Positions 340 to 21,453 of a DNA stretch of 24,079 bases are shown here, piece by piece. How positions within the stretch are numbered: position 1 is the first letter of the stretch; each line of letters begins with the position of its first letter. The position numbers were made by a program, and so were the translations under genes. A model generated the notes under the pieces. That model had not been told where the DNA came from, ran no database searches, and was given only the letters and a program-made list of their open reading frames with translations. The DNA is from Gemmatimonadota bacterium. Lineage in GTDB: Bacteria; Gemmatimonadota; Gemmatimonadetes; Longimicrobiales; Gaopeijiaceae. Where the stretch lies: positions 1 to 24,079 of the forward strand of contig JBDHHQ010000066.1 in NCBI GenBank assembly GCA_039589315.1, in the 5' to 3' direction.

Positions 340-384
340 GCTTCCCAAGCTGAGGGTCGCCGGTTCGAATCCGGTCGCCCGCTC
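340..384 (+). tRNA. 3' fragment of tRNA-Gly(CCC), probable att site of an integrative element
   Basis: GCTTCCCAAGCTGAGGGTCGCCGGTTCGAATCCGGTCGCCCGCTC contains the anticodon loop TT-CCC-AA, a perfect T-arm (GCCGG-TTCGAAT-CCGGT) and the 3' acceptor strand CGCCCGC. No complementary GCGGGCG or D-arm lies upstream. Confidence 0.85.
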
Positions 385-486: not shown

Positions 487-1134
487 TCACCACAGGCCGC
501 GGATTCGTCGAAGCAGCCGGCGGAAGGGTCCCTCGACACATTGATCCCACTTTCTGTAGCGCCGCGTGTCCACGTGGAACCGCGTTCCGCAATATAGGCC
601 GAGCCCCACCGAGTGGCCCGGACCCGTCTCCGCCCAGATGCTCTTGAGGGTCGCGAACAACTCGCCTCGCCCGATGGGCTCCCTCGGCACGAGGTCGACC
701 GCGGAGAAGCGCCGGTGTTGGCTGCGGCTCGCTCCGCCGGCGGCGCTGTTGTACTCGGGCGTCCGAAAGGCCGATACGACCTCGACCTCGCCGATCCGCG
801 GCCTCAGCTCGGCGCGAATGAACCGTAGCGTCGGTACGATATTGGGCCAGGCGGCGCGCGGCGGAACGGCGAACGGCGGCAATCCGAGCTTCCGGTAGTC
901 GGTTCCCTGACGTAGCAACTCTGGCGGATCGACGACGGTCCCCACCTGATGGTCGTGGAGGAACTCCGTGAACGCCCCGACCTCCCGTGCTGCTTCCTCG
1001 TCCTCCAGGAACGCGAGCCACTCCTGCTCCGTTGGTGGGTGGTCGGATAGCCCGCAGCCCGGGAGGGCCAGTGCTCCCATGACGAGCAGCAGCGCCTCGA
1101 GTGGTCGCCGGTGAATCGTCGGCGTCGCGCTCAT
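487..1134 (-). CDS. Peptidase M15A family (D-Ala-D-Ala carboxypeptidase-like Zn metallopeptidase) lipoprotein; cassette copy 1, intact
   Basis: Motifs SAFRTPEYN..GGASRSQH..SAVD and GLGLY..FHVDTR; lipobox-like LALPGC. The start codon is uncertain (1170, 1134 or 1080). Confidence 0.85.
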   Translation of the reverse strand: MSATPTIHRRPLEALLLVMGALALPGCGLSDHPPTEQEWLAFLEDEEAAREVGAFTEFLHDHQVGTVVDPPELLRQGTDYRKLGLPPFAVPPRAAWPNIVPTLRFIRAELRPRIGEVEVVSAFRTPEYNSAAGGASRSQHRRFSAVDLVPREPIGRGELFATLKSIWAETGPGHSVGLGLYCGTRFHVDTRRYRKWDQCVEGPFRRLLRRIRGLW

Positions 1135-1205
1135 ACTCCAGCCGGTCGACGAGTGGTCGGTCCCGCCCACCTCAGCGGCCCTTCCGGACAGACAACTTGC
1201 GCAAC

Positions 1206-1350: not shown

Positions 1351-1513
1351 CCTCGGGTTCGCGAGGTTGGTTGCGTTGCTCGGATTTGTCATCGATGCTA
1401 CCGACGGACGTCGACGCAACGAGAACAGCGACGACGGGCAACGCCGAAGCTGCCTGCTCAGCATTGTTGGCGCGAAGACCCCCCTCGTTCGTAGCACACG
1501 ACGGAGCCGGACA

Positions 1514-2077
1514 CTGAAAGACGACCATCCGACCATCTCAGGGGGCCAGAACCGGCGGTGGACGGCGCGACGGCGGACGCTTCCGACCCTGCTGGCAACC
1601 CTCGTCGCCGGCTGCGGCTCTCCTGAGACCCAGGGGCCCTCGGCACCGCTGAGCTCGAGCGACAGCGCATCGATCCACCAGCTCCGGCGAGCATTTTCAG
1701 AGACGCAGCTTTCCGGAGCCTGGCGCCGGCAGGCTGGACTGTTCACCCCGGACGGGGCCCTCCTCGAGGGGCGACGGCGACCCCTCATCGGCAGAGCCGC
1801 GATCCGGGGAGGGCTCGGGGAATTCGACATCGCCGTAGACACCTTCGACCTCAGCTCCCGAGAGGTGGCAGGCAACCGGACCCTGGCCGTGGATCGAGGA
1901 CGTTACGTGATCGGGGTCCGGACTTCCAGGTCGGGGCCTCTGGTTCGCGATTCCGGGTGGTATCTGATGGTCCTGAAGGGACAGCGAAACAGGTGGCGGA
2001 TCGCGGCTCTGACCCATCACTCAGACGGAAGATCCGAGGCGGATTCGGCATGGCAATCAACGAGCACCAACCGGTGA
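1514..2077 (+). CDS. DUF4440/YybH (SnoaL/NTF2-like) lipoprotein A, copy 1
   Basis: Lipobox LVAGC; LFTPDG..IGRAAIR..LAVDRGRY..GWYLMVLK..WRI. The start is uncertain: a CTG at 1514 follows GGAG, and the frame is open from 1367. Paralog of 8106-8665. Confidence 0.75.
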   Translation: MKDDHPTISGGQNRRWTARRRTLPTLLATLVAGCGSPETQGPSAPLSSSDSASIHQLRRAFSETQLSGAWRRQAGLFTPDGALLEGRRRPLIGRAAIRGGLGEFDIAVDTFDLSSREVAGNRTLAVDRGRYVIGVRTSRSGPLVRDSGWYLMVLKGQRNRWRIAALTHHSDGRSEADSAWQSTSTNR

Positions 2078-2500
2078 GGTCCGCTCGGCATCCAAGAGCC
2101 CGACCTCGACCACCCTCGTCGCTCACGGCCTCTTGCCTGGTTGGGGCAGTCGGTCTTTCCTTGGCCGCATGCTCCGACGATTCCGGTACCGTTGGGCGTT
2201 TGCACGAAGCGGTCCCCGGTGTCGAGGTCTGGCAACGGCGTACGTGAACGCCGTCCTTTCAAGAGATTCCGCGGATTTCGCGGCACTCTACCACGCGGAG
2301 GCCGTCCAACTCCCCCCGGGAGAGCCGGCCGTCGAAGGCCGTGGTGCCATCATGGAGCGTTTCGCGAGGTCTCGGAGCGACACCGAAACCGGTGGTCCGG
2401 TGAGCTTCTGGGGGTTCTCCTGGAGCGTCGACGGCATCGGTGGAGATCTCGCCTACGACCATGGGATGTATCAATTCCAGGTGACGTACGAGGACGGCGA
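2074..2500 (+). pseudogene. DUF4440 lipoprotein B, copy 1; frameshifted and 3'-truncated
   Basis: The GTG overlaps the upstream TGA; lipobox LAAC. One base is missing at about 2228 relative to copy 2 (GAG-GT-CTG vs GAA-GCT-CTG). Homology to 8670-9206 ends at QVTYEDGE. Confidence 0.8.
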
Positions 2501-2865
2501 ACCCGGTAGCGGCCGGGCTCTGGGGGTCGGTCGCGCCGGCCTTCGAACGTACCGTCCCATATCGCGACCTTGTGGCCCGGCGTCGGATCCGTCCAGGTGA
2601 AGGTCCTGCGCTCTCCGCCGAGGGTCCCTCGGCGCGACACGACGAGGTCGATGCACCCAATCGTAGGAGCCACGGCTCTGGAAAAGCCGGCCGCCTCCGA
2701 GCGTCGATCTCGAACGGTGAAGGTGATGCGGGCAGACTCGCCCTCGTCGACGCGCGACAGTCGTGGTCGAACCCGGAGATCGGTGATCCAATCGCCAACC
2801 GTGGTCGGCTCGGCGCACGCCGCAGTCGCGGTCCAGGCGAGGATCAGGACGATTGGGACTCGCAC
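2498..2865 (-). pseudogene. N-terminal half (signal + FlgD Ig-like domain) of the Tlde1-like lipoprotein, copy 1; catalytic domain deleted
   Basis: VRVPIVLILAWTATAAC...AIWDGTFEG..PPEPGRYRVR aligns with 10182-11129 up to GRYRVR, then abuts the truncated DUF4440 B. Confidence 0.85.
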
Positions 2866-2913
2866 GCTCGGAATCTTCGCTGTGAAGCGGCCCCGTGACG
2901 AGGAGTCGGAGCA

Positions 2914-2947
2914 ACGACCGCCACCTGGGGTCGGAGGTGGCGGTCGT
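2914..2947 (-). terminator. Hairpin, probable intrinsic terminator of the small lipoprotein gene (copy 1)
   Basis: ACGACCGCCACCT-N8-AGGTGGCGGTCGT is a perfect 13-bp stem, conserved in copy 2. Confidence 0.6.
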
Positions 2948-2983
2948 CTCCTCTCGCGGAGGGAGGGAACCGGGCTAGGACCT

Positions 2984-3276
2984 CTACCTCTTCCCAGGGC
3001 GCTCGCAGGGAGTCGTCTTGCCGGGAGCCGCCTCGACACTGGTGCCGCTCAAGTCGGGGGGCCCGCCCACGTTGTTGTCGACGGTCACGGTCCGGCTGTC
3101 CACCCAGCCCTCGCACACGTAGCAGTCGGCCGGGTGTCGCTCTGGAGCTGCCTCATTCCGTTCTTGAAATGGGATCTTACGCATGACCTCCCCGGGGCGG
3201 CCAACGCCATCTCTCTCTCTCTCGCACGCGCAGCACGTCCCTTCAACCCCCCACCGCCCCACATCAGGGAGGGCAT
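2984..3276 (-). pseudogene. Degraded homolog of the small Cys-rich lipoprotein (copy 1)
   Basis: DCYVCEGWVDSRTVTVDNNVGG..TPC matches DCIVCEASVDSRTVTVDNNVGG..TPC of 11238-11528. No intact in-frame signal peptide; the 5' limit is approximate. Confidence 0.6.
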
Positions 3277-3532: not shown

Positions 3533-4336
3533 TTACCATTCCGCCGTTGGTGGGGCGTCGTACTCCAGGTCTAGCAGGTCCGATATGGTGGCGAAAACGT
3601 AGCCTTGTTCCCTCAACGTCCTAATGATCTCGGGTAAGGCCTCGGCCGTGTGCCAGCCCCGGCCGTTGGCATGCATGATTACGATCGAACCGGGCCGCAC
3701 CTGTTCCACGACCCATGGAATCATCCTCTCGGCGGTTATCTCCGGGTCCGGGTCGCCGCTAACGACATCCCACTGGATAGTGTGCAAGCCGTGAGCTTCG
3801 ATCACCGCCAAGGCTTCGTCAGTGTACGTGCCGTATGGTAGCCGGAACAACCTTGATTGCCGACCCAATAGGTCCCACATCGCTTGTTGGGTCAGGATGA
3901 CTTCCGAGGCCATCTGATCGGGCGTGATCTGAGCGAAATCGAGGTGGCTCCAGCCGTGATTACCCAATTCAAACAGTTCACTCGCCGCCAGTTCCTTCGC
4001 TGCCTTTTCATTATGCGTCATCCACAGGCCACCCAGGAAGAAAGTGGCCGGCACGTCGTTTTCAGTGAGCACCCTGACTATCTCCGCGTCGTATCCCGCC
4101 GGATCTCCTTCCCGCTCGCCAATGTCAAACGTCAAGGCAACCTTCATGTCCGTTCGAGTCCCGTTCGTGATCGGACCACCTTCGTTGGCGTTCAGAAAGA
4201 ACTGTGCGAGATAGACGAACGCCGCACAGGCGATCAGGCCTAGTACCGCCACCACGACAGCGACGACAAGACGGTGCGTTCGCAGCCCATCATCGCTTCG
4301 CGATAGAGAGTCCCTGTCCCGGCCATTGAACCCCAT
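3533..4336 (-). CDS. Membrane-anchored polysaccharide deacetylase (CE4/NodB)
   Basis: N-terminal TM helix; VALTFDIG, ATFFLGG, GNHGWSH, FRLPYG, WDVVSGD and IVIMH motifs. Confidence 0.92.
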   Translation of the reverse strand: MGFNGRDRDSLSRSDDGLRTHRLVVAVVVAVLGLIACAAFVYLAQFFLNANEGGPITNGTRTDMKVALTFDIGEREGDPAGYDAEIVRVLTENDVPATFFLGGLWMTHNEKAAKELAASELFELGNHGWSHLDFAQITPDQMASEVILTQQAMWDLLGRQSRLFRLPYGTYTDEALAVIEAHGLHTIQWDVVSGDPDPEITAERMIPWVVEQVRPGSIVIMHANGRGWHTAEALPEIIRTLREQGYVFATISDLLDLEYDAPPTAEW

Positions 4337-5330: not shown

Positions 5331-6617
5331 GTGGGCAACGTGGAGCTAGAGACCGGGCGCGGGCGCAATCTCAGCCGTGCACTGCCGGCTCTGGGTGCTG
5401 GCGCGCTCCTCGGCGCCACACTCGCTTGTGAGTCTGTTACGGCCCCTCCCGCTTTGCCCTTCTCGGGTGCAGAGATCGGTGTCGACTTCGAGGGCGCTTC
5501 TCTGGGGAGCTGGCAAGAGGTGGATGCCGGCCGATTCGTCCTGGAGATCCGGCGGGACACGAACTCGGACTTCGCCAGGTGGTACTCGTTCCGAGTCCGG
5601 AGCGGCATCGACACACCGCTCAACTTCGAGGTGCAGAACGCGGGGGATGTCTCCGTTCCCGAAGCGTGGCCCATGAACCGTCCCGCCGTGAGTGCCGATG
5701 GCGGATGGACCTGGGGCCGGATCGCCGACACACGGTACGACGGGATGACCTTCGCGTTCCGGCACACGCCGCGGTCTGACGACGAGTGGATCGCCCTCGC
5801 CCCGGTCTACAACTTTTCGCGCTGGTTGGCGATGGTCGACGAGATCCGAGACCATCCCATGGTCGACACGCTCGAGGTGCTGGCGAACACGTTGGAGGGA
5901 CGCCCCGTGCATCTCGTGAAGGTCACGGATCCGGCCGCTCCGGATGCCGAGAAGCGCGCGGTTTGGGTCATTGGGCGGCAACATCCCGCGGAGGTAGGAG
6001 GATCGTGGAAGGGCGAGGGACTTCTGCGGTGGTCGCTCGGAGATGATCCGCAGGCGGCGGAGTTCCGGCGGCGGGCCTCCCTCTACATGATTCCCTTCAT
6101 GAACCCCGACGGCGTGTGGAACGGCAACTACAGGGTGAACGTTGCGGGGGCGAACCTGAACCGTGAATGGGAGAACCCGGATCCGGCCACGGCCCCGTCG
6201 GTCGCCGCTGCTGCGGCTCGGATCGAGAGCTTCGTGGCAGCCGGAGGTGACATCGCCTTCTTCGCGGACCTGCACTCCTTCACCATCCTGCGGAAGAACT
6301 TCTTCTTCTATGCCGGTGCCGATCGCGCTCCCCCCGAAAGGGTCCAGGAAGTCGAGGCGCTCATGGCCCGGTTCGAGGAGATCAACGGTGACTTCACGCG
6401 GGACGGGTCTGAGCCATCGGCGGATGAAAGGCGGTTCGCGCGCGGGTGGATCCACGAGACCTTCGGGGTCCAGGCCGTGACGTTCGAATCCGCCTACCAG
6501 GACGTTACCTATGGGCCCCACGCCGGGATGTTCATGACTCCGGAGCGCTACATGGCCCTGGGCGAAGGACTGGGAGGGGCCGTGGCCGAGGTTCTGTTTG
6601 CCATCGCCGCTCAGTAG
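5331..6617 (+). CDS. M14 family zinc carboxypeptidase (cytosolic-carboxypeptidase-like) lipoprotein
   Basis: RQHPAE (HxxE), PFMNPDG..GNYR, NLNREW, DLHS; N-terminal DFEGASLG..WYSF domain; lipobox TLAC. Confidence 0.9.
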   Translation: MGNVELETGRGRNLSRALPALGAGALLGATLACESVTAPPALPFSGAEIGVDFEGASLGSWQEVDAGRFVLEIRRDTNSDFARWYSFRVRSGIDTPLNFEVQNAGDVSVPEAWPMNRPAVSADGGWTWGRIADTRYDGMTFAFRHTPRSDDEWIALAPVYNFSRWLAMVDEIRDHPMVDTLEVLANTLEGRPVHLVKVTDPAAPDAEKRAVWVIGRQHPAEVGGSWKGEGLLRWSLGDDPQAAEFRRRASLYMIPFMNPDGVWNGNYRVNVAGANLNREWENPDPATAPSVAAAAARIESFVAAGGDIAFFADLHSFTILRKNFFFYAGADRAPPERVQEVEALMARFEEINGDFTRDGSEPSADERRFARGWIHETFGVQAVTFESAYQDVTYGPHAGMFMTPERYMALGEGLGGAVAEVLFAIAAQ

Positions 6618-7219: not shown

Positions 7220-7714
7220 ATGAGTGATGTTACGTCGCTGACACAGAACATCATCAGGGCGAATGGCCTTTACGACTGGCTCAAGGACTTCCCTTGGCTG
7301 ACCGGGCACTTGGGTGACCCCCATGCCGCGGTCTGGTTTGTGGCCGAGAACCCGAGCCTAGCGGGCGTAAGGGGGGTGGACGCGCGGTTCACCGACAAGT
7401 CAGCGAACCTACAGTGGACCTGCCTTCCCGGAACCTCCAGCCGACTTTGGCGCGACGCGATCACTGAGGCCGGCCTCAAGAGGGGACACCCGTGCGACGA
7501 TGAAGGATGGCGATGCTACATAACCAACGCGGACAAGGAGCTCCAGCAGGTCACGGCGCGCAACCAGAAGAAGAACTCGTCGTTCATGCGGCAGCAGGCG
7601 ATTCGTTGGCTGCCCGTCCTCCAAGCGGAGATCGACGAGGGGAACCCGAAGGTGCTCGTCGCACTGGGCGCGCAAGCCGAGAAGCTCCTGCGGAGCCATC
7701 CCTCGCTACACTGA
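7220..7714 (+). pseudogene. Uracil-DNA glycosylase superfamily protein, 3'-truncated
   Basis: GGAGGA RBS before ATG 7220; GDPHAAVWFVAENP, YITNADK and PKVLVALGAQA motifs. Sequence after about 7681 is homologous to the antisense strand of the M15 gene. Confidence 0.7.
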
Positions 7715-7911
7715 TCCCACCTTCTGTACTTGCGCGTGTCGACGTGAAACCGCCTTCCGCAATAGAGGCCGAGGCCAACCGAGTCGGCCGCGCCGTGCTC
7801 CGCCCACACGCTGTCGAGGGTCCGCACCAGCTCACCTCGCTCGACAGGGTTCTTCGGCACGAGGTCCACCGCGGAAAAGCGCCGGTGTTGACTGCGGCTC
7901 GCTCCGCCAGC
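7681..7911 (-). pseudogene. C-terminal fragment of the M15 peptidase (copy 2)
   Basis: GGASRSQHRRFSAVDLVP..GLGLYCGRRFHVDTRKYRRWDQC aligns with about 510-741. The N-terminus is missing. Confidence 0.85.
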
Positions 7912-7922
7912 AATGCAGATAC

Positions 7923-8030
7923 GTGACCACGATAACGCTCCTCGAGCTCAGCCACACGGTGGTCGCGACCACGCCAGCTCCCACACGGAAGAACGTCGGC
8001 CACACGCGTGACCGTGAGAGCTTGCGGCAA
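7923..8030 (+). pseudogene. SDR fragment (copy 2)
   Basis: TGACCACGATAACGCTCCTCGAG is identical to 1270-1292; translates VTTITLLELSHTVVATT. Confidence 0.6.
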
Positions 8031-8105
8031 ACCCCCCGCCTGTCGACGTTCCCGATCAGGACGTCAGGCGAAGGCGCCGCACCCGCGCCGCTGTGAGGTC
8101 GGACA

Positions 8106-8665
8106 TGAGCTTTCCGGAGTGTGTACCCGCAGTGTCTGAAGCGGCCGTTGGCGTCCCGCGGCGGGCCGCGATCGTGTCGCTGCCGATCCTGCTCGTGGCC
8201 CTTGTCGCCGGCTGTGGCCCCCAAGAGACCCCCTCTGCACATCTGAGCCCGAGCGACAGCGCGTCGATCGACCAGATCCGGCGGGCGCTCGCGGAGACGG
8301 AGCTCGCCGGGTCATGGCGCGAGCAAGTCGATCTGTTCGTCCCGGATGGCGCGCTTCTCGAGGGCCGGAGGCCACCCCTCGTCGGCAGAGCAGCGATCCG
8401 GGCAGGGCTCGGGGAATTCGACATCGCCGTGGACACCTTCGACCTGAGCTCTCATGAAGTCGCGGGCAACCGGAGCCTGGCCGTCGATCGAGGGCGTTAC
8501 GTGATCGGGGTTCGGACCTCCAGGTCGGGGCCCATGGTTCTGGATTCCGGATGGTATATGATGGTCCTGAGGCAACAGCGAAACCGGTGGCGGATCGCCG
8601 CTCTGACCCACCACTCCGATGGAAGATCCGCGGACGCAGCGATGCGCGCCGTCAACGAGCGCTAG
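8106..8665 (+). CDS. DUF4440/YybH (SnoaL/NTF2-like) lipoprotein A, copy 2
   Basis: Lipobox LVAGC; LFVPDG..VGRAAIR..LAVDRGRY..GWYMMVLR..WRI. The start is uncertain. Confidence 0.75.
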
Positions 8666-8669
8666 CCTG

Positions 8670-9206
8670 GTGACGTCGGCCTGGTATCGGAGGCGTCTAC
8701 GACGATTGCGGTCGCCCCGCATGGGCTCGTGGATGATTGGGACAGTGAGCCTTTCCCTCCTCGCATGCTCCGACCACTCTGGTGCCGCTACCTCCGTGCG
8801 CGAGGCGATCCCCGGCATCGAAGCTCTGGCGACGGCGTACGTGAGCGCCGTTTTGTCCAACGACGCTGCGGGCCTCACGGCACTCTACCATTCTGAAGCG
8901 GTCCAACTCCCTCCAGGAGAGCCGGCCGTTGAGGGTCGCACCGCCATCGTGGACCGGTTCGCGAGGTCTCGGAGCGCCTCCGAACCCGGTGGTCCGGTGA
9001 GCTTCTGGGGGTTCTCCTGGAGCGTGGACGGGTTCGGAGGGGATCTCGCCTACGACTACGGCATGTACCAATTCCAGGTCACGTACGAAGAAGGGGACAC
9101 GTCGGAGCTTCTCGAAGGGACCTACGTGGTGGTGCTGCGGGAAGAGGGAGGTGCCTGGAGGATCTGGCGGGAGGCCTGGACCGAGGGGGCCACCGACGAT
9201 CCCTAG
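8670..9206 (+). CDS. DUF4440/YybH lipoprotein B, copy 2, intact
   Basis: Lipobox LLAC; ALYHSEAVQLPPGEPAVEGRTAI..LAYDYGMY..GTYVVVLREEGGAWRIWREAW. The start is GTG 8670 or ATG 8721. Confidence 0.85.
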   Translation: MTSAWYRRRLRRLRSPRMGSWMIGTVSLSLLACSDHSGAATSVREAIPGIEALATAYVSAVLSNDAAGLTALYHSEAVQLPPGEPAVEGRTAIVDRFARSRSASEPGGPVSFWGFSWSVDGFGGDLAYDYGMYQFQVTYEEGDTSELLEGTYVVVLREEGGAWRIWREAWTEGATDDP

Positions 9207-9216
9207 CCGGACACGT

Positions 9217-10185
9217 CTAGGGAACCCTGCCTCGCAGGCGCTCGATGTTCGACCGATGCTCGTCGAACGTGGTCGAGAACACCGACCGCCCATCCGGACC
9301 CGCCACGAAGAACAGGTACGGCTCGTCGGCCGGGGAAAGGGCGGCATCGATCGCGAGCTCGTCCGGGGCTCCCACCGGACCTGGCGGCAGGCCGTCGATG
9401 AAGTACGTGTTGTAGGGATGGTCCGCGAGCTGGTCGATGTCCCTGAAGGATACCCCCGCCCCTACAGGCAGCGCGTACCGGATCGTCACATCGGCTTGCA
9501 GCTGCATTCCCTGGCGAAGGCGATTGTGGAAGACGGCCGAGACCAGCGGCAGCTCGTCGTCCCGGAAGGTCTCGGCTCGGATCAAGCTGGCGAGGGTGGC
9601 GAGTTCCCTCTCGGACATTCCAAGGGAATCCAATCGCGCCTGCCGGGCCTCGGTCCAGACCTCCCGGTATCGCTGGTAAAGGAGGCTGGCCACACCTTCG
9701 ACTGTCATCGGCGCCTCGAGGCGGTAAGTGGCCGGAAACAGGTATCCTTCCATGGTGGGGCCCGGAGCGCCAAGCGAATCGGCGAGAGACGGTCGCAGCA
9801 GCTCCTGGACGACGGTCTGGGGAGTCAGTCCCACGAGGGGGCCGATTCGATCGCCGATCTCGGCAATGCGAGCACCTTCGGGAATCGTCAAGACATACCC
9901 AACTGACCGACCGGAGACCAGGACGTCCAGGATCTCCGCCCAGGACGCCCCACTGGGCAGGTCGTAGGTACCCGGCTTCACGGCCCGGTCCACGCCGCGG
10001 AGGCGGGCGTAGACCCGTAGCCGAAAAGCCGAACGAACCACGCCTCGGGCATGGAGGGAGTCCGCGATCTCGGCGAACGTGGCGCCCTCGGCGACGGTGA
10101 CACGCTCGAGGTAGTGCTCCGTGCGTCCACAGCCCACCAGAAGACACAGGAGCAGACCAAGGCCGCCGGCAGTCAACCGGCTCAC
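9217..10185 (-). CDS. mltG: Endolytic transglycosylase MltG (YceG family)
   Basis: TIPEG, EGYLFPATY, LASLIRAET, VFHNRL..GMQLQAD, PYNTY..GLPPGP and YLFFVA motifs. Its GTG overlaps the upstream TGA. Confidence 0.95.
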   Translation of the reverse strand: MSRLTAGGLGLLLCLLVGCGRTEHYLERVTVAEGATFAEIADSLHARGVVRSAFRLRVYARLRGVDRAVKPGTYDLPSGASWAEILDVLVSGRSVGYVLTIPEGARIAEIGDRIGPLVGLTPQTVVQELLRPSLADSLGAPGPTMEGYLFPATYRLEAPMTVEGVASLLYQRYREVWTEARQARLDSLGMSERELATLASLIRAETFRDDELPLVSAVFHNRLRQGMQLQADVTIRYALPVGAGVSFRDIDQLADHPYNTYFIDGLPPGPVGAPDELAIDAALSPADEPYLFFVAGPDGRSVFSTTFDEHRSNIERLRGRVP

Positions 10186-11129
10186 GAGCTACCGTAGTCC
10201 ACGACGAAAGGCACGCTGTCCTGAGGCATCCAGGAGAGCAGCGACATCATCTGATTGAACCGACCTTCATCTGCGGGATGGACGCCGATGCAGCCGGCGG
10301 TACCATCGTCGGCAGGATCCAGGTGAAGGAAGAAGCCGAAGCGGGTGTGCGCCTCTGCGGGGTGCATGGGCACGCGTATGGGACCCCACTGCTCCAGCGT
10401 CCCGCCCGTAGTGTACTGCAACTCCCCGTTCCGGACGTCCGGAAACTGAACCTGATCCTTCAGAACATAGTATAGCCCCTGTGGGATCGGGCCCCGGTCG
10501 GTAATCGACTGATACCTCGGGTGTGTGTAGTCGATACCGGTCTCGTTCTCGGGGTTGTCGGCTCGCAGGCCGGACACCGCCCGGACCCGGATCTCGTTGC
10601 CTCCACGATCGAGCAAGCTGACCGTTTCTCCGTCGAACCTGAGCAATGCCAGGCCCAGTCCGGAGTGCGTCCGGGGTAGGACAGATCGGCCCGCGGCATT
10701 GGAGAGCCGAACGGAGCCCGAGACGGTTTGGCGCCGTCCGCTGGAGTCCGTCACACGGGCCCGCACCCGGTAGCGACCGGACTCGGGCGGCCGGTTGCGC
10801 TGGCCTTCGAACGTGCCGTCCCAGATGGCGACCTTGTGCCCGGGCGTCGGATCGGTCCAGACGAAGGTCCTGCGTTCTCCACCCAGCGCCCGCCGTCGCG
10901 ACACGACGACTTCGATGGACCGGATCGTGGGAGCCACGGACCTCGAGAAGCCGGCCGCCCTCGAGCGTCGATCTCGAACGAGGAACGTGATGCGTACGGC
11001 TTCACCCTCGTCGACTCGCGACGGTTGCGGTTGGACCTGGAGGTCGGTGACCCACTCGCCCACCCCTGCCGAGTCGGCGCACGCGACAGCCGAGGTCCAC
11101 ACGAGGATCAGGACGATTGGGACTCGCAC
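10182..11129 (-). CDS. Lipoprotein with FlgD-type Ig domain and C-terminal Tlde1/DUF2778 (L,D-transpeptidase-fold) domain
   Basis: Signal ending AVAC; WDGT..GRYRVR (Ig domain); AVSG..RGPIPQGLY..WG..RFGFFLH..GTAGCI (His/Cys pair). Confidence 0.75.
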   Translation of the reverse strand: MRVPIVLILVWTSAVACADSAGVGEWVTDLQVQPQPSRVDEGEAVRITFLVRDRRSRAAGFSRSVAPTIRSIEVVVSRRRALGGERRTFVWTDPTPGHKVAIWDGTFEGQRNRPPESGRYRVRARVTDSSGRRQTVSGSVRLSNAAGRSVLPRTHSGLGLALLRFDGETVSLLDRGGNEIRVRAVSGLRADNPENETGIDYTHPRYQSITDRGPIPQGLYYVLKDQVQFPDVRNGELQYTTGGTLEQWGPIRVPMHPAEAHTRFGFFLHLDPADDGTAGCIGVHPADEGRFNQMMSLLSWMPQDSVPFVVDYGSS

Positions 11130-11177
11130 GCTTGGAATCCTCGCTCAGGAGCGGTCCCGTGACGAGGAGGCGAACAA

Positions 11178-11209
11178 CGACCGCCACCTGTGGTCAGAGG
11201 TGGCGGTCG
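11178..11209 (-). terminator. Hairpin, probable terminator (copy 2)
   Basis: CGACCGCCACCT-N8-AGGTGGCGGTCG, followed by TTGTT on the minus strand. Confidence 0.6.
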
Positions 11210-11237
11210 AGTCCTTCCGTCGAGGGAAGAGACCGGA

Positions 11238-11528
11238 CTAGAACTTCTTCCCCGAGCAGGGGGTCGAGGAGGGAGTTCCGCCGACGTTGTTGTCGACAGT
11301 GACGGTTCGGCTGTCCACCGACGCCTCGCAAACGATGCAGTCTCCGTTCACGTCCATGGGATGACCGGTCGCGGTCCTCGGAGCGAAGTGCAGTGGACAG
11401 AGCCCCTCTCCGATTGCGGAGAGCAGGGCCTCGGATTCGGGACTGAGGACATCGCCGTCCATGGCTTCACATGCGAGCCACGAGGTCGTACCTAGCACGA
11501 GCGTGACGAGTAGGACCAGCTTTCTCAT
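11238..11528 (-). CDS. Small Cys-rich lipoprotein of unknown function
   Basis: GGAGG RBS; MRK-hydrophobic-WLAC signal; CPxxF, DVNGDCIVC and VDNN; a homolog is present in copy 1. Confidence 0.8.
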   Translation of the reverse strand: MRKLVLLVTLVLGTTSWLACEAMDGDVLSPESEALLSAIGEGLCPLHFAPRTATGHPMDVNGDCIVCEASVDSRTVTVDNNVGGTPSSTPCSGKKF

Positions 11529-15331: not shown

Positions 15332-18010
15332 TCACTCCGCGGCGATCGCCTTCAAGGGATCCACTCGTGCCGCGTGCACCGCTGGCACCACGGACGCCGC
15401 CAGAGCAACGGCCGCAAGAAGCCCGACGGCCATGACATAGGTACGGACGTCGGTCGCACTGACTCCGTAGATCTGCGTCGCGATCGCCTGGCTGAGCGTC
15501 AAGCTGACCAGGATCCCGAGGAAGAGCCCGATCAACACCCGGGCATAGCCCTGCCGTACTACCTGGAGAACCACTCCTTCCGGTGGTGCGCCGAGCGCCT
15601 TGCGGATACCGATCTCTCGACCGCGCTGGGCCACGGAGAAGCTCAACACGCCGTAGAGTCCAGCGCCTCCCATCGCGAGCGCCACCAGGGCGAACACCGA
15701 GAGCAGAAGCATGCGGTACCGGCGAGGGGCGATGGCGTTCGCCACCACCTCGTCCATGGTCAGCAGGCCGTACAGAGGAAGGGCGGGATCCGCTTGTTTG
15801 ACCGCATTGCGCACGGCGGAGGCGACGCTGTGGGGATCACCCGAGGTGCGGACGACGAAGGTCGTGTGGTTCAGGGCATTCTGGCTGTGAGCCAGGAAGA
15901 CCTCGGGCTCGGGTGAACTGTCCAGACCGCCGGTGGTGACGTCGGCCACGACCCCGATCACCGTGGCCCACTCCGTCTCGGGATCATCGGGATCTCCCCA
16001 GAACGTCAGGCGCTTTCCGACCGGGTCCTCGCCGGGCCAATACCGGTCGGCGAGCGCCTGGTTGATCACAGCCACGGTGGTCGTCTCAATTCGGTCGCTG
16101 CCGTCGATCGAGCGGCCCCGCAACAGAGGGATGCGGAGCGTGCGGAAGTAGTCCGGGCTCACGACCTGATAACCGGCCGAAGGAAAATCCACCGCGTCCT
16201 GAGGCCTCCCCTCTATCGCGAAGGTGAACGTGCCACGCATTGCCCAATGCATCGGCAGCGTCAGGACCGTGGCCGCCGACTCCACTTCCGGGATCGCTCG
16301 AAGTCGCGCCAACACGTCGTCGTACAACGCCGCGATCGCGCCCTCCTCGGCGTACTCGGCGGTCGGCAGAGAGACATGAGCGACCAAGGTGTGTCCTGGA
16401 TCGAATCCGGGATCCGTGTCCTGGAGCTGTTGAAACGTGCGAACCATCAATCCGGCGCCGACCAGCAGCACCAGTGAGAGCGCGACCTCAGCGACGACCA
16501 CGATGTCGCGGAGGCGCGAGCGGTACTTCTCGGTCGCCAGGGATCCACGCAGCCAGGGCGACAGACCAGACCCACGGTCCGACACGCCGAGCAGGGGAGC
16601 GAGGCCAAAGAGGACGCCCGTGACAAGTGCCAGAATGGTGCTGAACCCGAATACGCGAGCATCGACCTCGACCTCGCCCAGCCGGGGGATGCCCTCGGGA
16701 GCCATCGCGACGAGTCCCCACGTGCCCCCCACCGCCAGCGCGAAACCGGCGAGTCCCCCAAACAGGGACAGCAACACACTCTCCGTGAGGAGTTGGCGTC
16801 GAATCCGGGCCGCGCTGGCACCCAGCCCGAGGCGAACGGCCAGCTCCCGCCCCCGTTGTGACACGCGCACGGTCAGGAGGTTTGCCACGTTTGCGCACGA
16901 AATCAGCATGACCAGACCCACCGCTCCGAGCAACAGGAGAAGGGTGGGCTTCACTTCGCCAACGAGCGCGTCCCGAAGCCGGACGACCGAGACGCCCTCA
17001 TCGGTCTGGGTATCAGGAAACTCGAGCGCGAGCTGTGCGGCCAGTCCGTCCATCTCCGCTTGGGCAGCAGCGATGCTGACCCCGTCGGCCAGGCGACCCA
17101 CTACCGAGAGGTACTGAGCGCCGCGGTTGTCGCTCATGTCCGTCAGGTCGCGCGGTTGCAGTGGGACGCGGTGAGGCGAGGTGACGAAGATCGACGCGTC
17201 TGGTGGGAAGTCGAACTCGGGAGGCATCACGCCGACGATCGCGTGCGCCTCACCATTGAGGATGACGGTCCGTCCAATGATGTCCGGATCCGCTCCGAAT
17301 CGAGCCTGCCAGAACGAGCTCGCGAGAACGGCGAGGCGACTCCCGACGGGCTCACCGCTCCGTGGAGTCCGCCCGAGCGCCGCCGGGACGTCGAGGACAT
17401 CGAAGAACTCGGGTACGACGGATACGCCTGAGATGCGCTGGGGGAATTCTCCACCCACGAGGTTGAAGCTCAATCTCCGATACGCAGCCAAGGCCTGGAA
17501 CGACTGCGCCTCCGCGCGCCAGTCGAGGTAGGTAGCCCCCGCAACCACGTTCGAGAATTCGCCCAGCGCGGGCTCGGTGGCATACACCTGGACCAGTCGT
17601 TCCGGCTCTGGCAGCCGCACGGGTCGCAGGAGCAGCGCATCGGACACGCTGAACACAGAGGTGCTGGCCCCGATTCCGACGGCCACACTCGCGACCGCAA
17701 AGGAGGTAAACCCTGGTTTGCGCCTGAAGCTGCGGGCCGCGAAACGGAGATCTCGGATGAGCTCAGGCGGTACCGCCCGCGTTCTCTCCCAGAAGAAGGC
17801 CGCGCAGACCTGCAGCGTGGACCGCCAATACCAGAGGCGGGCGTGGGCCGGGTTCCGAGCTGATCGAATCCGATACTCCTCCGCTAGATCGCCGAGCAGC
17901 GAATCTCGTGTGAGACCCTGCGGCAGAGCCGCGCGCAGCAAGGCGACGGCAACCCGTGGTGGACGGGACGAGGCCGGGCGGCTCGGGTCGGTGGGAGGCC
18001 GAAGCTTCAC
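15332..18010 (-). CDS. ADOP family duplicated orphan ABC permease (MacB_PCD/FtsX x2)
   Basis: PPR..LGDLAEEY prefix, DLRFAARS, LISCANVANLL, REIGIRKALGA and AARVDP. The GTG overlaps the padR TGA. Confidence 0.95.
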   Translation of the reverse strand: MKLRPPTDPSRPASSRPPRVAVALLRAALPQGLTRDSLLGDLAEEYRIRSARNPAHARLWYWRSTLQVCAAFFWERTRAVPPELIRDLRFAARSFRRKPGFTSFAVASVAVGIGASTSVFSVSDALLLRPVRLPEPERLVQVYATEPALGEFSNVVAGATYLDWRAEAQSFQALAAYRRLSFNLVGGEFPQRISGVSVVPEFFDVLDVPAALGRTPRSGEPVGSRLAVLASSFWQARFGADPDIIGRTVILNGEAHAIVGVMPPEFDFPPDASIFVTSPHRVPLQPRDLTDMSDNRGAQYLSVVGRLADGVSIAAAQAEMDGLAAQLALEFPDTQTDEGVSVVRLRDALVGEVKPTLLLLLGAVGLVMLISCANVANLLTVRVSQRGRELAVRLGLGASAARIRRQLLTESVLLSLFGGLAGFALAVGGTWGLVAMAPEGIPRLGEVEVDARVFGFSTILALVTGVLFGLAPLLGVSDRGSGLSPWLRGSLATEKYRSRLRDIVVVAEVALSLVLLVGAGLMVRTFQQLQDTDPGFDPGHTLVAHVSLPTAEYAEEGAIAALYDDVLARLRAIPEVESAATVLTLPMHWAMRGTFTFAIEGRPQDAVDFPSAGYQVVSPDYFRTLRIPLLRGRSIDGSDRIETTTVAVINQALADRYWPGEDPVGKRLTFWGDPDDPETEWATVIGVVADVTTGGLDSSPEPEVFLAHSQNALNHTTFVVRTSGDPHSVASAVRNAVKQADPALPLYGLLTMDEVVANAIAPRRYRMLLLSVFALVALAMGGAGLYGVLSFSVAQRGREIGIRKALGAPPEGVVLQVVRQGYARVLIGLFLGILVSLTLSQAIATQIYGVSATDVRTYVMAVGLLAAVALAASVVPAVHAARVDPLKAIAAE

Positions 18011-18342
18011 GGCGTGTCCATGAGGAGCTCGTCGATTCCCTCCCACGAGGCGAGCAGGGAGGCTCGGGCCGCGCGAAGCGCGTTGCGCCCGTCGCGCGTG
18101 ACCTCGAGGTACCGTTTGGGACGCCCCTCTCGCCCCGGCCCGGTGTCGCCTCGGTTGGACCTGAGAAGCGACTTCTTCTCGAGACGGTCCAACGTGACGT
18201 AGAGGGAGCCGCGGTTCACGTCCCGGCCCGTCGTTTCTTCCAGCCAGGCCAGGACCAGAGGGGGGTATGCGGCGGGGCCGACCTGCAGAACAGCGGACAG
18301 AACCAACTGTTCGAAGGTTCCAAGCAACGGATCTCGTGTCAT
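18007..18342 (-). CDS. PadR family transcriptional regulator
   Basis: LGTFEQLVL..GSLYVTLDRLEKK..GRPKRYLEVT..W. Confidence 0.93.
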   Translation of the reverse strand: MTRDPLLGTFEQLVLSAVLQVGPAAYPPLVLAWLEETTGRDVNRGSLYVTLDRLEKKSLLRSNRGDTGPGREGRPKRYLEVTRDGRNALRAARASLLASWEGIDELLMDTP

Positions 18343-18348
18343 GCTTTC

Positions 18349-18377
18349 ATCGTAAGCATAACGGACGAGGCAGTCAA
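18349..18377 (-). promoter_or_regulatory. Sigma70-type promoter, probably leaderless
   Basis: TTGACT-N17-TACGAT-N6-ATG with no SD sequence. Confidence 0.7.
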
Positions 18378-18403
18378 CGGAGGATCTCTGGATGGGTCCG
18401 AGC

Positions 18404-18431
18404 TTGATTTGTTCAATCCAATTGATAAAAT
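18404..18431 (+). promoter_or_regulatory. Sigma70-type extended -10 promoter, probably leaderless
   Basis: TTGATT-N16-TAAAAT with TG-n before the -10; the ATG follows 5 nt later with no SD; the palindrome TCAAT-CCA-ATTGA lies in the spacer. Confidence 0.65.
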
Positions 18432-18436
18432 ACGGT

Positions 18437-18772
18437 ATGGCAAGGAACCAAACCCTCGGGGAGACGGAGCACCTCGTCCTGTTGGTCGTCATCCGCCTGG
18501 GCGATGACGCCTACGGCATGCGCATCTCGGAGGAGCTGGCGGACCGCGTGGGCCGCGACGTGTCCATCGGATCGGTCTACGCGGCGCTCGATCGCCTGGA
18601 AAAGCGCGGGTACGTCACCAGCCGCGTGGGCGATCCGACTCCTCAACGAGGGGGACGCGCGAAACGGTACTTCGCGGCGGAGCGCAGGGGCGTCGAGGCC
18701 CTCGCCGATTCCCGGGCGCTTCTGACCGATCTCTGGGACGGGATCGAGCTCGATCCCGAGAGCTACGGGTGA
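18437..18772 (+). CDS. PadR family transcriptional regulator
   Basis: LGETEHLVLL..AYG..GSVYAALDRLEKRG..RGGRAKRYF..LW. Confidence 0.95.
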   Translation: MARNQTLGETEHLVLLVVIRLGDDAYGMRISEELADRVGRDVSIGSVYAALDRLEKRGYVTSRVGDPTPQRGGRAKRYFAAERRGVEALADSRALLTDLWDGIELDPESYG

Positions 18773-21453
18773 CGGACTCCAGGGCGGCACCACCCGGCCT
18801 GGCCAGGCTGATGGTCACCCTGGCAACACCCCCACGGTACCGGCAGTGCGTTCTGGGCGATCTGGAGGAGGCCTTCCACCTTCGGGCCGCCCGGTGGAGC
18901 CTGGACGAGGCGCGACGATGGTACTGGCGACAAGCCCTCCGATCGGTGCTGCCAGGGCTGAGCACACGACTTCGCAAGTGGGAGGGCGACCGAGAGACCG
19001 AGATCGATCTCGGCGAGATGAGACGGAAGAGACGTGCCACATGGGCTGAGGAGTGGACGATGGGCGGATGGATTCGGCATGTGAGACTGGCGGTGAGATC
19101 ACTGGCCAGAAAGCCTGGCTTCGCGCTCTTGGCCATCGTCACGCTGGGGCTCGGAATCGGGGCGAACACGGCGATCTTCAGCGTGCTCTACGGGTCGCTC
19201 CTGCGGCCGCTCCCGTACTCCGACGTCGACCGGCTCGTCTACCTGTCCGACGGGCATGAGAACTTCGGTGGTGCGGGGGTCGATCAGACCATTCCGAATC
19301 TGCTCGATCTGCGTGAAGGATCACGCCTCATGCAATCGTCGGCGATGTTCACCTTCACCGGCGGCAACCTCTCCACGAGCGAGCAGCCCGAGCGCGTTCG
19401 AGTGCTGCTGACGTCTTCGGAGCTGCTCAGCGTGCTTGGCGTGGCCCCCTCCCTCGGCCGGGACCTGGTCCCTGAAGACGACTTGAATGGCGCGGAGCGG
19501 ACGGTGCTGATCAGCGATGCGCTGTGGCGTCGCAGCTTCGGGGCCGACCCGGGTGTGGTCGGACGAACGACGATCATCGACGCGGCTCCCGTGCGCATCG
19601 TTGGGATCACGCCTCCAGGATTCTCGTTTCCCGCCGCGCCGGACGTGTTCATGACGCTCCAGCACGTGGGCGGGGACTACCCACGGGGGAATCGGAACTA
19701 CAACGCGGTCGGCCGGCTGGCGGCGGGCGCCAGCGTCGAGGCTCTGCGGGAAGAGTTGCAGGGGATCTTCGACGGGCTGGTGGAGAGGTACCCGGACGCG
19801 AACGGCGGAGGGTGGTATACGTGGGCGGCCCCGATCGACGAGTTCGTGCTCGGCATGAACCGCCGGTCGCTGTACTTGCTGAGCGGTGCTGTGGTACTGG
19901 TGCTGCTGATTGCGTGTGTGAACGTGGCCAACCTGCTCCTGGTGCGCTCCGAGAGTCGGCAGCGGGAGCTCGCCGTGCGGTTCGCGTTGGGCGCAGGGCG
20001 TGCCGGTCTCGTCCCGCACTTCATCAGTGAGGGCCTGGTGCTCTCGGTGCTGGGCGGTGCCATCGGTGTGCTGGCGGCGATCGGCGGGATCGACCTCCTG
20101 GTCGCCCTCTACGGCGGCTCGCTCGCTCGATCCGAGCAGATCGACCTGAACGGAACCGTGCTGTTCTTTAGCGTTGGGGTCTCCTTGATCGTGGGACTGG
20201 TGGTCGGATTGGTGCCCCTCTTCCGCGCGCAGCCACAGCGGTTGCAAGCCTCCCTCAAGGAAGGGGCGCGCGGTTCGTCGCTCCGGAGCAGCCGGCTCGG
20301 TCGGTCCCTCGTGATGGCGGAGGTCGCGCTCGCCCTGGTCATCGTGGCCGGAGCGGGGCTCCTGATGAACAGCATGTGGAGGCTCCAGCACGTCGATCTC
20401 GGGCTCGCCGATACCGACGAGATGCTCACGTTCCAGCTCACGCTACCCGAGGCCAAGTACGAAGAGGGGGCACCGGTCGTCGGTTTCTTCGACGAGCTTT
20501 CACGGGAGCTCACGTCCATCCCCGGGGTGGAGGCGGTAGGGTTCGTGAATCGCTTGCCGCTCCTTGGGGGGTACAACACACGGATCTCCGTCTGGGGAGA
20601 CCCGGAGCGCGAGGCCAACTTCGTATCCTATCGACCCGTGACGCCCGGGTATTTCGACGCCCTGGGCGTGCCGCTCCTGTCAGGCCGCTGGTTGGATGCC
20701 GCAGAATATGCCGACGGAGCGGAGAGCGTGCTCATCAACGAGACGCTGGCTCGTCGGCTGTTCGCGGGGGCGGATCCGATCGGGCAGCGGATCGGGAGTT
20801 GGGTCGAGGGAGGTATGGCGGTCGTCGGCGTGGTGGGCGACGTGAAGGGCGGGGGGCCCACGCGGCCGGCCCCACCCGCGTTCTACTTCCCGTTCGCCAC
20901 ATTCGGAGGTGAGCGCGCCGCTTCGGCGATCGTGAGGACCGCCGGCAATCCTCGGGCGTTGATCCCCCACGTCCGCCAAGCGGTCGAACAGCTCGACCCC
21001 CAGGTCCCCGTCTACGGGATCAGAACCATGGAAGAGGTCGCGGTCCAGCGGTTGGGATCCCGGCGGTTCGCGATGTCGCTGTTCGGTGTCTTCGCGGGAC
21101 TGGCCCTGCTCCTGGGCGCGGTCGGGATCTACGGCGTTATGTCGTTCTCCGTCACTCAGCGAACCCGGGAATTGGGGGTTCGCCTGGCGCTCGGAGCGAG
21201 CCGAGGCTCGGTGATGCGGATGGTGTTGAGCCAGAGCGCTCGTCTGGTGGGGCCCGGCCTGGCGCTCGGGTTGCTTCTGGCACTCGCTGCTGCCCGACTG
21301 CTCAGCAGCTTGCTCTTCGAGGTGAGCGCGGTAGACCCGGTCACCTACCTGGCGGTGGCGTCCGTGCTCGCGATGGTAGCCCTCGGGGCGACCTTCGTTC
21401 CGGCGCTGAGAGCGACCCGGGTCGATCCGCTCACCAGCATCCGCAATGACTGA
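18769..21453 (+). CDS. ADOP family duplicated orphan ABC permease
   Basis: LGDLEEAF prefix, LGIGANTAIFS, LIACVNVANLLL, RTRELGVRLALGA and RATRVDP. The GTG overlaps the padR TGA. Confidence 0.95.
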   Translation: MTDSRAAPPGLARLMVTLATPPRYRQCVLGDLEEAFHLRAARWSLDEARRWYWRQALRSVLPGLSTRLRKWEGDRETEIDLGEMRRKRRATWAEEWTMGGWIRHVRLAVRSLARKPGFALLAIVTLGLGIGANTAIFSVLYGSLLRPLPYSDVDRLVYLSDGHENFGGAGVDQTIPNLLDLREGSRLMQSSAMFTFTGGNLSTSEQPERVRVLLTSSELLSVLGVAPSLGRDLVPEDDLNGAERTVLISDALWRRSFGADPGVVGRTTIIDAAPVRIVGITPPGFSFPAAPDVFMTLQHVGGDYPRGNRNYNAVGRLAAGASVEALREELQGIFDGLVERYPDANGGGWYTWAAPIDEFVLGMNRRSLYLLSGAVVLVLLIACVNVANLLLVRSESRQRELAVRFALGAGRAGLVPHFISEGLVLSVLGGAIGVLAAIGGIDLLVALYGGSLARSEQIDLNGTVLFFSVGVSLIVGLVVGLVPLFRAQPQRLQASLKEGARGSSLRSSRLGRSLVMAEVALALVIVAGAGLLMNSMWRLQHVDLGLADTDEMLTFQLTLPEAKYEEGAPVVGFFDELSRELTSIPGVEAVGFVNRLPLLGGYNTRISVWGDPEREANFVSYRPVTPGYFDALGVPLLSGRWLDAAEYADGAESVLINETLARRLFAGADPIGQRIGSWVEGGMAVVGVVGDVKGGGPTRPAPPAFYFPFATFGGERAASAIVRTAGNPRALIPHVRQAVEQLDPQVPVYGIRTMEEVAVQRLGSRRFAMSLFGVFAGLALLLGAVGIYGVMSFSVTQRTRELGVRLALGASRGSVMRMVLSQSARLVGPGLALGLLLALAAARLLSSLLFEVSAVDPVTYLAVASVLAMVALGATFVPALRATRVDPLTSIRND

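Follow-up and report, generated by a model that had tools for sequence, protein, structure and literature searches.

What is a predicted wall-cutting lipoprotein, with toxins among its relatives, doing immediately upstream of a second gene for the glycan terminase MltG? The question is raised by a stretch of 24,079 nucleotides (nt) from a Gemmatimonadota bacterium (assembly GCA_039589315.1, contig JBDHHQ010000066.1, positions 1 to 24,079; hereafter the window). An earlier, sequence-only reading of this DNA had proposed a two-gene wall-editing pair, in which a Tlde1/DUF2778-like L,D-peptidase lipoprotein (here called the enzyme) is translationally coupled to an accessory MltG. Our own answer, to which we give a probability of about one half, is that the enzyme belongs to what sequence comparison suggests is a rare, likely horizontally mobile module of five predicted lipoproteins, and that this L,D-peptidase, a relative of the toxin cargo of extracellular contractile injection systems (eCIS), likely edits the peptidoglycan of its own cell together with a duplicated MltG. 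We computed the fold and active-site residues of the enzyme, recovered one clade of lipobox-bearing forms and one of accessory MltGs, and found these genes together repeatedly in shuffled orders. The function is predicted, at about even odds: the enzyme would trim or exchange D-Ala4 on the cell's own stem peptides, and MltG would cut uncross-linked strands. The five genes, and the parts of the enzyme discussed below, are as follows.

10182..11129, minus strand: the enzyme, a predicted lipoprotein of 315 residues with an immunoglobulin-like (Ig) domain and a Tlde1-fold domain; GTG start.
10290..10325, minus strand: predicted catalytic His269 (10323-10325) and Cys280 (10290-10292), the latter in T277-A278-G279-C280 (alignment A1, profile A7).
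10695..11057, minus strand: Ig/FN3-like beta-sandwich of the enzyme (VIA-align Z about 10 to FN3/Ig domains, model residues 23-145; alignment A1).
9217..10185, minus strand: accessory MltG, 322 residues, lipobox LVGC19 (YceG E 9e-73; TIGR00247 above cut-off).
11238..11528, minus strand: small predicted lipoprotein of 96 residues that belongs to no known family; lipobox LAC20; its gene immediately precedes that of the enzyme.
8619..9206, plus strand: DUF4440/NTF2-fold predicted lipoprotein a (Pfam DUF4440 E 2.8e-9; probable start about 8724), convergent with mltG.
8093..8665, plus strand: DUF4440/NTF2-fold predicted lipoprotein b (Pfam DUF4440 E 4.5e-6).

The enzyme comprises a signal sequence with lipobox (residues 1-17), an Ig/FN3 domain (about 25-145) and a catalytic domain (about 158-313). 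Signal peptides and lipoboxes were assigned by eye. The lipobox, AVAC17, is non-canonical at position -3; its Cys is aligned in 7/7 full-length rows of alignment A2, in which the relatives have LLAC, LLGC, LAGC or VSAC. A homolog search returned 54 proteins. Alignment A1 has 50 rows, and His269 and Cys280 are invariant in all 50. The features from which the pair was first recognised, namely an Ig-domain lipoprotein, GPIPxGxY (GPIPQGLY, residues 213-220), H-x7-TAGC (exactly, as H269-LDPADDG-TAGC280) and the overlap of the enzyme's TGA with the GTG of mltG, were all confirmed on coordinates and motifs.

Pfam places the enzyme under the gathering cut-off for Tlde1 (PF10908; E 0.0013, 19.6 bits, cut-off 30.1) as well as for YkuD (E 0.05, 14.6 bits, cut-off 23.4); Pfam Tlde1 is matched at E <= 0.01 by 37/50 rows of A1, the best at 5.6e-6. 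An AlphaFold2 (AF2) model built on the 50 homologs of A1 reached a mean predicted local distance difference test score (pLDDT) of 89.5 and a predicted template-modelling score of 0.87; from the enzyme sequence alone the pLDDT was 32.6, and the model used is the one with A1. For the catalytic domain of this model the top Foldseek match was Tlde1a (E 4.7e-6), and VIA-align gave Z 13.1 with Tlde1a (root-mean-square deviation 3.0 over 132 aligned residues), with which Csd6 and Pgp2 (Z 12.5 each) are tied, being less than 1 Z apart; Bd1075 follows at 10.8. Within the PDB, a broad profile of 20 catalytic domains (A7) matched only Tlde1a chains (E 1.1e-10), whereas phmmer with the catalytic domain and a search with profile A1 found no match there to Tlde1 or to any L,D-transpeptidase (LDT). 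Profile A7 pairs W248, R263, H269, T277, G279 and C280 of the enzyme with W93, R115, H121, S128, G130 and C131 of Tlde1a; Ala278 stands at H129 of the Tlde1a motif S128-H129-G130-C131, and the His-to-Cys spacing is 11 as against 10. The ESM Atlas yielded nothing usable with the enzyme. The predicted fold is assigned from the AF2 model, the structure searches and the Tlde1a profile match, the Pfam match being weak, and it is the L,D-transpeptidase fold that had been expected; of the family searches proposed with it, the Pfam ones fell below threshold for both DUF2778 and YkuD, while structure and profile A7 lead to Tlde1a. The enzyme lacks every mark of a classical YkuD LDT: the motif HXX14-17(S/T)HGCh, a score above the YkuD cut-off, and Arg at Cys+2, where the enzyme has Gly (TAGCIG) and most cross-linking LDTs have Arg (excerpts of PMC8938487, and for the motif also of 10.1101/2020.02.18.954545).

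From which toxins might such a lipoprotein descend? Besides the query and its broken copy in the window, six full-length relatives have, by eye, a short hydrophobic segment with the aligned Cys, and two that group with these lipobox forms are N-truncated. The remaining homologs carry the Ig and catalytic domains behind long N-termini without a lipobox. These long, eCIS-type relatives are 39-54% identical to the enzyme over about 90% of the protein and share its Ig/FN3 domain in A1. The eCIS core (DUF4157, PF13699) was found in 6/50 rows of A1 and in 37 of the 93 distant relatives scanned (150 were listed), among which three carry PG_binding_1 and one RHS_repeat. At the level of genomes, eCIS tube genes (PF06841) were present in 4/5 with long forms versus 0/4 with lipoprotein forms, the latter being incomplete metagenome-assembled genomes, and the eCIS core (PF13699) gave the same counts, so that the enzyme does not itself classify as an eCIS-associated toxin. 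One long form is directly preceded by a WHD-AAA ATPase, which we take to be of eCIS type. The lipobox forms make one clade both in a 66-row module tree (9 rows; Shimodaira-Hasegawa-like approximate likelihood-ratio test, SH-aLRT, 99) and in a 68-row catalytic-domain tree that left out two rows lacking the motif (10 rows, SH-aLRT 90), and the trees place this clade inside the long forms. Because the long forms and the outgroup have no lipobox, the lipid anchor is derived by parsimony; the lipobox looks to have replaced an injection N-terminus. The toxin activity of the long forms is itself a prediction.

Since many of the nearest non-lipoprotein kin carry the eCIS core or lie in genomes with eCIS genes, the toxin kinship is of eCIS type and not that of type VI secretion systems (T6SS). 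The Tlde1-like identity given in the sequence-only reading is retained, and the kinship with T6SS effectors is replaced by one with DUF4157-type cargo. Its observation that the window has no Rhs, PAAR or VgrG gene is borne out by the 23 open reading frames (ORFs) scanned; T6SS VipB was found in 1/4 lipoprotein genomes, the window's own (G000), on other contigs (C105, C33, C83, C2). The Ig plus Tlde1-fold domain often forms the C-terminal end of long proteins, those with the eCIS core and related ones, from Chloroflexota, Actinomycetota, Bacteroidota and elsewhere (L002-L023, L057-L073), and is thereby indicated as a common predicted eCIS cargo; the long-form loci viewed show no conserved neighbouring immunity gene, and some long forms are fused to S8 proteases (P0066, P0078, P0278). 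More distant secreted proteins share the motif DGTAGCIG (L031-L055, mostly E 1e-4 to 1e-6), which means that other secreted LD-peptidases of this kind exist. Together with P0105, which has an N-terminal domain, they are mostly without a lipobox and many are of apparent cyanobacterial type; they are possibly separate recruitments to work on the cell's own wall.

The genes that surround the lipobox forms provide the second line of evidence. Scans yielded 54 metagenome and 21 genome loci. Enzymes of the lipobox clade lie in L056, L003, L060 and L059, of which the last two are near-identical and count as one lineage, giving four lineages with the window. In these the small Cys-rich lipoprotein, the enzyme, DUF4440 lipoproteins a and b and the accessory MltG form a module whose proteins are 45-56% identical across lineages and whose genes stand in four different orders. 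The small gene is immediately upstream of the enzyme in 4/4 lineages (window, L056, L003, L060) and the DUF4440 genes adjoin in 4/4, which makes these genes more constant than mltG, adjacent in 3/4. Homologs of DUF4440 a adjoin the accessory mltG in L056 and L128 and the enzyme in L003, and in P0202 a domain of this type is fused to the C-terminus of the accessory MltG; homologs of DUF4440 b directly follow the enzyme in L056, L059 and L060 and lie upstream of the small gene in L003. Module hidden Markov models matched the four lipoprotein loci and found nothing in the other 71 loci of L002-L076, among them nine long-form loci that have 2 kb or more of flanking sequence on either side. The enzyme-mltG adjacency noted at the outset thus recurs in other genomes, but the supposed pair is part of a five-gene unit.

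The position of mltG varies between lineages. In the window the enzyme's TGA and the GTG of mltG share four nucleotides (GTGA), and since the open frame of mltG has only 323 codons, with an in-frame stop just upstream, this GTG is the earliest possible start. Translational coupling may be inferred from the overlap. The overlap is real, yet mltG is co-directional with the enzyme and overlaps it only in the window lineage: in L056, L060 and L128 mltG is divergent beside the small gene, and in the two other mltG-bearing lineages it is a DUF4440 gene that the enzyme runs into. L060 (genome G444) breaks off within the opening codons of mltG; the gene is present in full, along with DUF4440 a and the beginning of the small gene, on another contig of that genome (L128, 82% identical). 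As circumstantial evidence, enzyme P0005 and MltG P0238 are each recorded from a single Logan contig of 4518 nt, and P0266 and P0203 each from an NCBI contig of 3899 nt. Further envelope enzymes among the neighbours also speak for wall editing: in L056 an Amidase_3 gene follows DUF4440 b, and in two clusters (P0057, P0276) the enzyme is fused to CapA/PGA_cap; this metallophosphatase-fold domain also scores weakly against the model of the lasso-peptide epimerase MslH.

Is the accessory MltG a true second copy? The window genome has another mltG, as the sequence-only reading had suggested checking; it is a housekeeping copy, 47% identical, on contig C146 between ruvX and thiE (names assigned by eye), and this order is the setting of the single mltG in nearly all relatives checked. 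The accessory MltGs, which lie outside it, form one long-branched clade (10 rows, SH-aLRT 99, in a quick tree of 102 rows). It nests among housekeeping MltGs that belong to a different family (f6) and not near the window genome's own copy, a position that suggests a single duplication with later transfer. Of the 278 class genomes that have mltG, eight show two matches to it; two of the eight (G000, the window genome, and G049) fall in the accessory clade, and in both the copy adjoins the enzyme. Where the genome is known (3/3), the accessory clade was met only in genomes with the enzyme. In the accessory MltG, E205 and D232 align with E218 and D245 of E. coli MltG (alignment to 2r1f), and both are kept in 9/9 accessory-type sequences checked. 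Because the Asp marks lytic transglycosylases (excerpts of 10.1101/2021.03.06.434200, also for the residue roles), the protein is predicted to be one, and not an MpgA-type muramidase. It looks intact and, by analogy with its family, would cleave nascent or uncross-linked glycans to leave anhydro ends. Its lipid anchor is no distinction, as the housekeeping MltGs of the phylum, by eye, have one too. Four longer homologs include no enzyme-MltG fusion, which is weak evidence. As to other second copies, those of G059, G063, G109 and G112 were rejected as module members; they make a separate clade in family f4 with variable, unrelated neighbours (L123-L126). Those of G551 and G553 were rejected as well; they seem to be pieces or duplicates of the housekeeping mltG locus.

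The small lipoprotein has the motif C-P-x2-F...D-x-N-x-D-x-x-x-C...V-D-N and found no credible match in Pfam or the ESM Atlas; Pfam scans gave no match to the immunity family DUF2195. It is a candidate regulator or immunity protein. A prediction of its complex with the enzyme scored 0.00 with the small protein poorly folded and gives no verdict. The gene occurs in 3/301 class genomes, one of which (G306) has no enzyme nearby; that member (L136:1244-1660) has two motif repeats and sits between repeats resembling, by eye, tRNA fragments. An Excalibur-like, Ca-binding reading of its DxNxD was considered and dropped, Pfam giving it no support.

These observations would fit together as follows. A lipid anchor is predicted for each of the five products, which would place them in one compartment. 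There Cys280 would attack the bond between meso-diaminopimelic acid at position 3 and D-Ala4 of tetrapeptide stems, and the enzyme would free D-Ala as a carboxypeptidase or swap in another D-amino acid, lowering cross-linking. MltG could then cut the uncross-linked strands, leaving anhydro ends, and the wall would locally become thinner or be turned over. Carboxypeptidase products predominate with Tlde1a, which besides trimming tetrapeptides exchanges D-Ala4 and forms some 3-3 links (excerpts of 10.1101/2022.08.05.502956), and the residues it needs are retained as W248 (W93), R263 (R115), G279 (G130), H269 and C280. MltG releases only uncross-linked muropeptides (excerpts of PMC8135044 and PMC13729221). 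The NTF2 domain of the self-acting enzymes Csd6, Pgp2 and Bd1075 binds peptidoglycan or targets the enzyme (excerpts of PMC8938487); the DUF4440 neighbours and the MltG-DUF4440 fusion suggest that the DUF4440 lipoproteins may supply in trans the stem-binding or targeting role that those enzymes have in cis. By analogy, the small lipoprotein might restrain or position the enzyme.

The same chemistry admits a different emphasis, in which the enzyme is mainly a transpeptidase for L,D-cross-linking or D-amino-acid exchange and MltG provides it with short strands as substrate, in the manner suggested for YcbB and MltG in E. coli. Tlde1a does form 3-3 links and exchange D-Leu in vitro, and its H129A variant, which corresponds to Ala278 here, halves carboxypeptidase products and retains exchange, although it yields little peptide-acceptor product (excerpts of 10.1101/2022.08.05.502956). 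MltG is conditionally essential for YcbB-mediated cross-linking, with MepK able to compensate (excerpts of PMC13729221); an M15 peptidase is present in the window (see below), though its gene is missing from the other module loci. Canonical YkuD was not found in 3/4 lipoprotein genomes, but the window genome has two ordinary YkuD genes. As the residue at Cys+2 is not Arg and the best structural matches are carboxypeptidases, we consider a cross-linking kit improbable.

Nor is it self-evident that the enzyme acts on its own cell. It might instead be a weapon, exposed at the cell surface or released in vesicles, that attacks the walls of neighbours, with the small or DUF4440 proteins as immunity and MltG as a second lysin or for repair of self-damage. 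The toxin-type relatives and the patchy, mobile distribution agree with this. So does the Salmonella immunity gene tldi1, which is likewise small, secreted and upstream (excerpts of 10.1101/2020.02.18.954545); given this likeness, the earlier statement that the window holds no recognisable immunity gene is not safe. NTF2-fold immunity proteins and lipobox-anchored effectors are also described, but the Imm-NTF2 partners listed are nuclease and JAB toxins, not LD-peptidases (excerpts of PMC3482391). Against a weapon, there is no C-terminal toxin polymorphism, the same domain occurring in all lipobox forms; the long eCIS forms have no module neighbours, the small gene exists with no enzyme nearby, the MltG partner stems from a housekeeping gene, and E. 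coli MltG is inactive on cross-linked wall (excerpts of PMC13729221). We therefore judge it rather unlikely.

The window also bears on the history of the module, through a second copy of it and two features to its left.

1367..3195, no strand assigned: diverged second copy of the module, about 80% identical in nucleotides (repeats D1-D3, D5 and D6; blastn; dN/dS against the other copy 0.19-0.29).
487..1170, minus strand: Peptidase M15, predicted lipoprotein (Pfam Peptidase_M15_3 E 3e-7; MepK model only E 0.05).
340..384, plus strand: 45 nt that repeat the 3' half of tRNA-Gly(CCC) exactly, resembling an attachment (att) site; 100% match to an intact tRNA on contig C119.

In the second copy DUF4440 b is intact, the small gene is a remnant, and a deletion of about 1.66 kb, with its junction at about 2497-2500, joins DUF4440 a to the Ig part of the enzyme, so that mltG and the catalytic domain are gone. 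An ORF spanning the junction (P0051) is known from a 2632-nt contig, which suggests that the junction is not a misassembly. The ratio of nonsynonymous to synonymous divergence (dN/dS) between copies is 0.19-0.41 over four gene pairs, indicating divergence under purifying selection with a later deletion. The duplication is an ancient one, and comparing the whole duplicated region (487-3195 with 7516-11528), the losses are reciprocal: the first keeps M15 and lacks mltG and the catalytic domain, which the second keeps along with a truncated M15 gene (remnant at 7516-7911) adjoining a uracil-DNA-glycosylase-like ORF. The M15 gene is probably accessory, as it has no tblastn match in L002-L076. The intact tRNA-Gly(CCC) lies near the end of C119, and the fragment at 340-384 looks like an integration site; by its orientation any element would lie to the left of the contig start. 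Misbinning of the contig was considered and rejected, its composition ranking between the 87th and the 90th percentile among 469 chunks of the genome and being no outlier. The enzyme profile matched only 3/401 genomes of the phylum, one of them a long form, which leaves the lipoprotein form in 2/401. It matched 0/300 genomes of the window's own family, 1/31 in each of families f6 and f9, and, among 60 relatives, a single other protein, weakly (E 3.6e-7).

A history of this kind raises the suspicion that the genes are merely cargo, transferred together at an integration hotspot with no partnership in function, the GTGA overlap being a by-product of rearrangement. The att-like tRNA-Gly fragment, some 100 nt away from the first copy, and the decay of a duplicate are what one would then expect, as are the want of mltG in L003 and G487 and the restriction of the enzyme-mltG overlap to one lineage. 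Yet the same genes have stayed neighbours through four gene orders and at protein identities of 45-56%, MltG and DUF4440 are fused in P0202, and the accessory MltG clade keeps to genomes with the enzyme; we regard mere hitchhiking as very unlikely.

Returning to the proposal that the module remodels the wall of its own cell, a number of our results weigh against it. The second copy in the window has lost mltG and the catalytic domain; L003, a 4.3-kb contig, has the enzyme, the small gene and both DUF4440 genes with no mltG, and in G487, which is 90% complete, only the housekeeping mltG was found. The lineages with visible context number only four, and a mobile block inherited as a unit means that they are not independent tests. 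The extreme patchiness (0/300 in the own family) fits conflict genes as well. DUF4440-like genes occur in 102/151 class genomes, and being so common they weaken the link of DUF4440 to the module; a profile search gave no match to Csd6, Pgp2 or Bd1075, which restricts the NTF2 parallel to the level of fold. In the enzyme itself, R99, W90 and the disulfides of Tlde1a have no counterpart, and Ala278 is family-wide, so that we rejected it as a detoxifying change and it gives no sign of domestication. Finally, an approximately unbiased test allows the lipobox clade to be sister to the Ig-bearing long forms (p 0.48).

Compared with known systems, the enzyme would work like a Tlde1-type LD-peptidase, yet it belongs neither to the T6SS Tlde pairs nor to eCIS cargo, the Csd6 architecture or the classical LDTs. 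With Salmonella Tlde1a-Tldi1a (Tlde1/DUF2778, PF10908) it shares the fold, the short His-Cys spacing, the (S/T)xGC motif, the equivalents of W93, R115, H121, G130 and C131, and a small secreted gene upstream. It differs in the sub-cut-off Pfam score, the lipobox, the Ig domain, Ala for H129, the lack of a DUF2195 match and of a T6SS locus, and the linkage to MltG and DUF4440. A T6SS Tlde pair would have no Sec signal and a T6SS, Rhs or PAAR context, whereas here the lipobox Cys is conserved and the window ORFs scanned hold no such families. The candidate for an adjacent immunity gene is the small lipoprotein gene, upstream of the enzyme in 4/4 lineages and without a DUF2195 match. Close to it, too, are the eCIS DUF4157 proteins with the same Ig and LD-peptidase C-terminus, together with Tox-LD-peptidase of polymorphic toxins (excerpts of PMC3482391); the former have long N-termini without a lipobox, occur in eCIS-bearing genomes and lack the module neighbours. 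A further comparison is with Csd6 (Helicobacter), Pgp2 (Campylobacter) and Bd1075 (Bdellovibrio), which resemble the module in catalytic fold, NTF2-fold partners and proposed action on the own wall. Their NTF2 domain is in cis at the C-terminus, whereas here the enzyme ends after its catalytic domain, no NTF2 fusion occurs among the four longer homologs, and DUF4440 is found in separate lipoproteins or fused to MltG. Identity with them is 14-16%, and no link of theirs to MltG was met in excerpts of PMC8938487. E. coli YcbB (LdtD), MltG and MepK offer an L,D-peptidase-fold enzyme functionally tied to MltG, but there the genes belong to the housekeeping core, with YcbB acting as a cross-linking LDT (excerpts of PMC13729221), whereas the module clusters a duplicated MltG with a toxin-related enzyme. 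By the MltG/YceG standard (TIGR00247/PF02618) the accessory copy is a regular member, above cut-off with catalytic Glu and Asp kept, that differs in its location and its long-branched clade.

Full-text searches of a library lacking most subscription papers turned up no account of the module or of a Tlde1 form that is a lipoprotein, the excerpts of 10.1101/2020.02.18.954545 leaving open that its Table S2 lists such members, and the combination of an eCIS-related origin with an MltG, DUF4440 and small-lipoprotein module looks new. Tentatively, and at somewhat less than even odds, we suggest that an injected wall toxin of the eCIS kind underwent a single domestication in Gemmatimonadota, through a swap of its injection N-terminus for a lipobox and through recruitment of a duplicate of the housekeeping MltG, two NTF2 lipoproteins and a new small regulator, to give a mobile remodeller of the own wall, a split, toxin-born counterpart of Csd6, Pgp2 and Bd1075 with an added glycan terminase. 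If true, one could trace here how a domain of a bacterial weapon turned into an enzyme that acts on its own cell's wall, and since the ancestor-like (eCIS) and derived (lipobox) forms are still about 50% identical, the steps could be tested directly. It would also connect an L,D-peptidase with a dedicated MltG through the clustering of their genes, a connection made until now by function, in E. coli, and would offer a candidate role for some DUF4440 lipoproteins and for a small unnamed lipoprotein family, within the limits set by a module that is rare and comes from uncultured organisms.

A scan of the window for promoters and terminators gave nothing above chance. Between the two copies lie a PgdA/PdaB-like polysaccharide deacetylase (3533-4336) and an M14 carboxypeptidase with a likely lipobox (5331-6617), which could be further envelope enzymes. 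Farther on, at 15332-21453, two divergent pairs of PadR and MacB/FtsX permease genes stand back to back.

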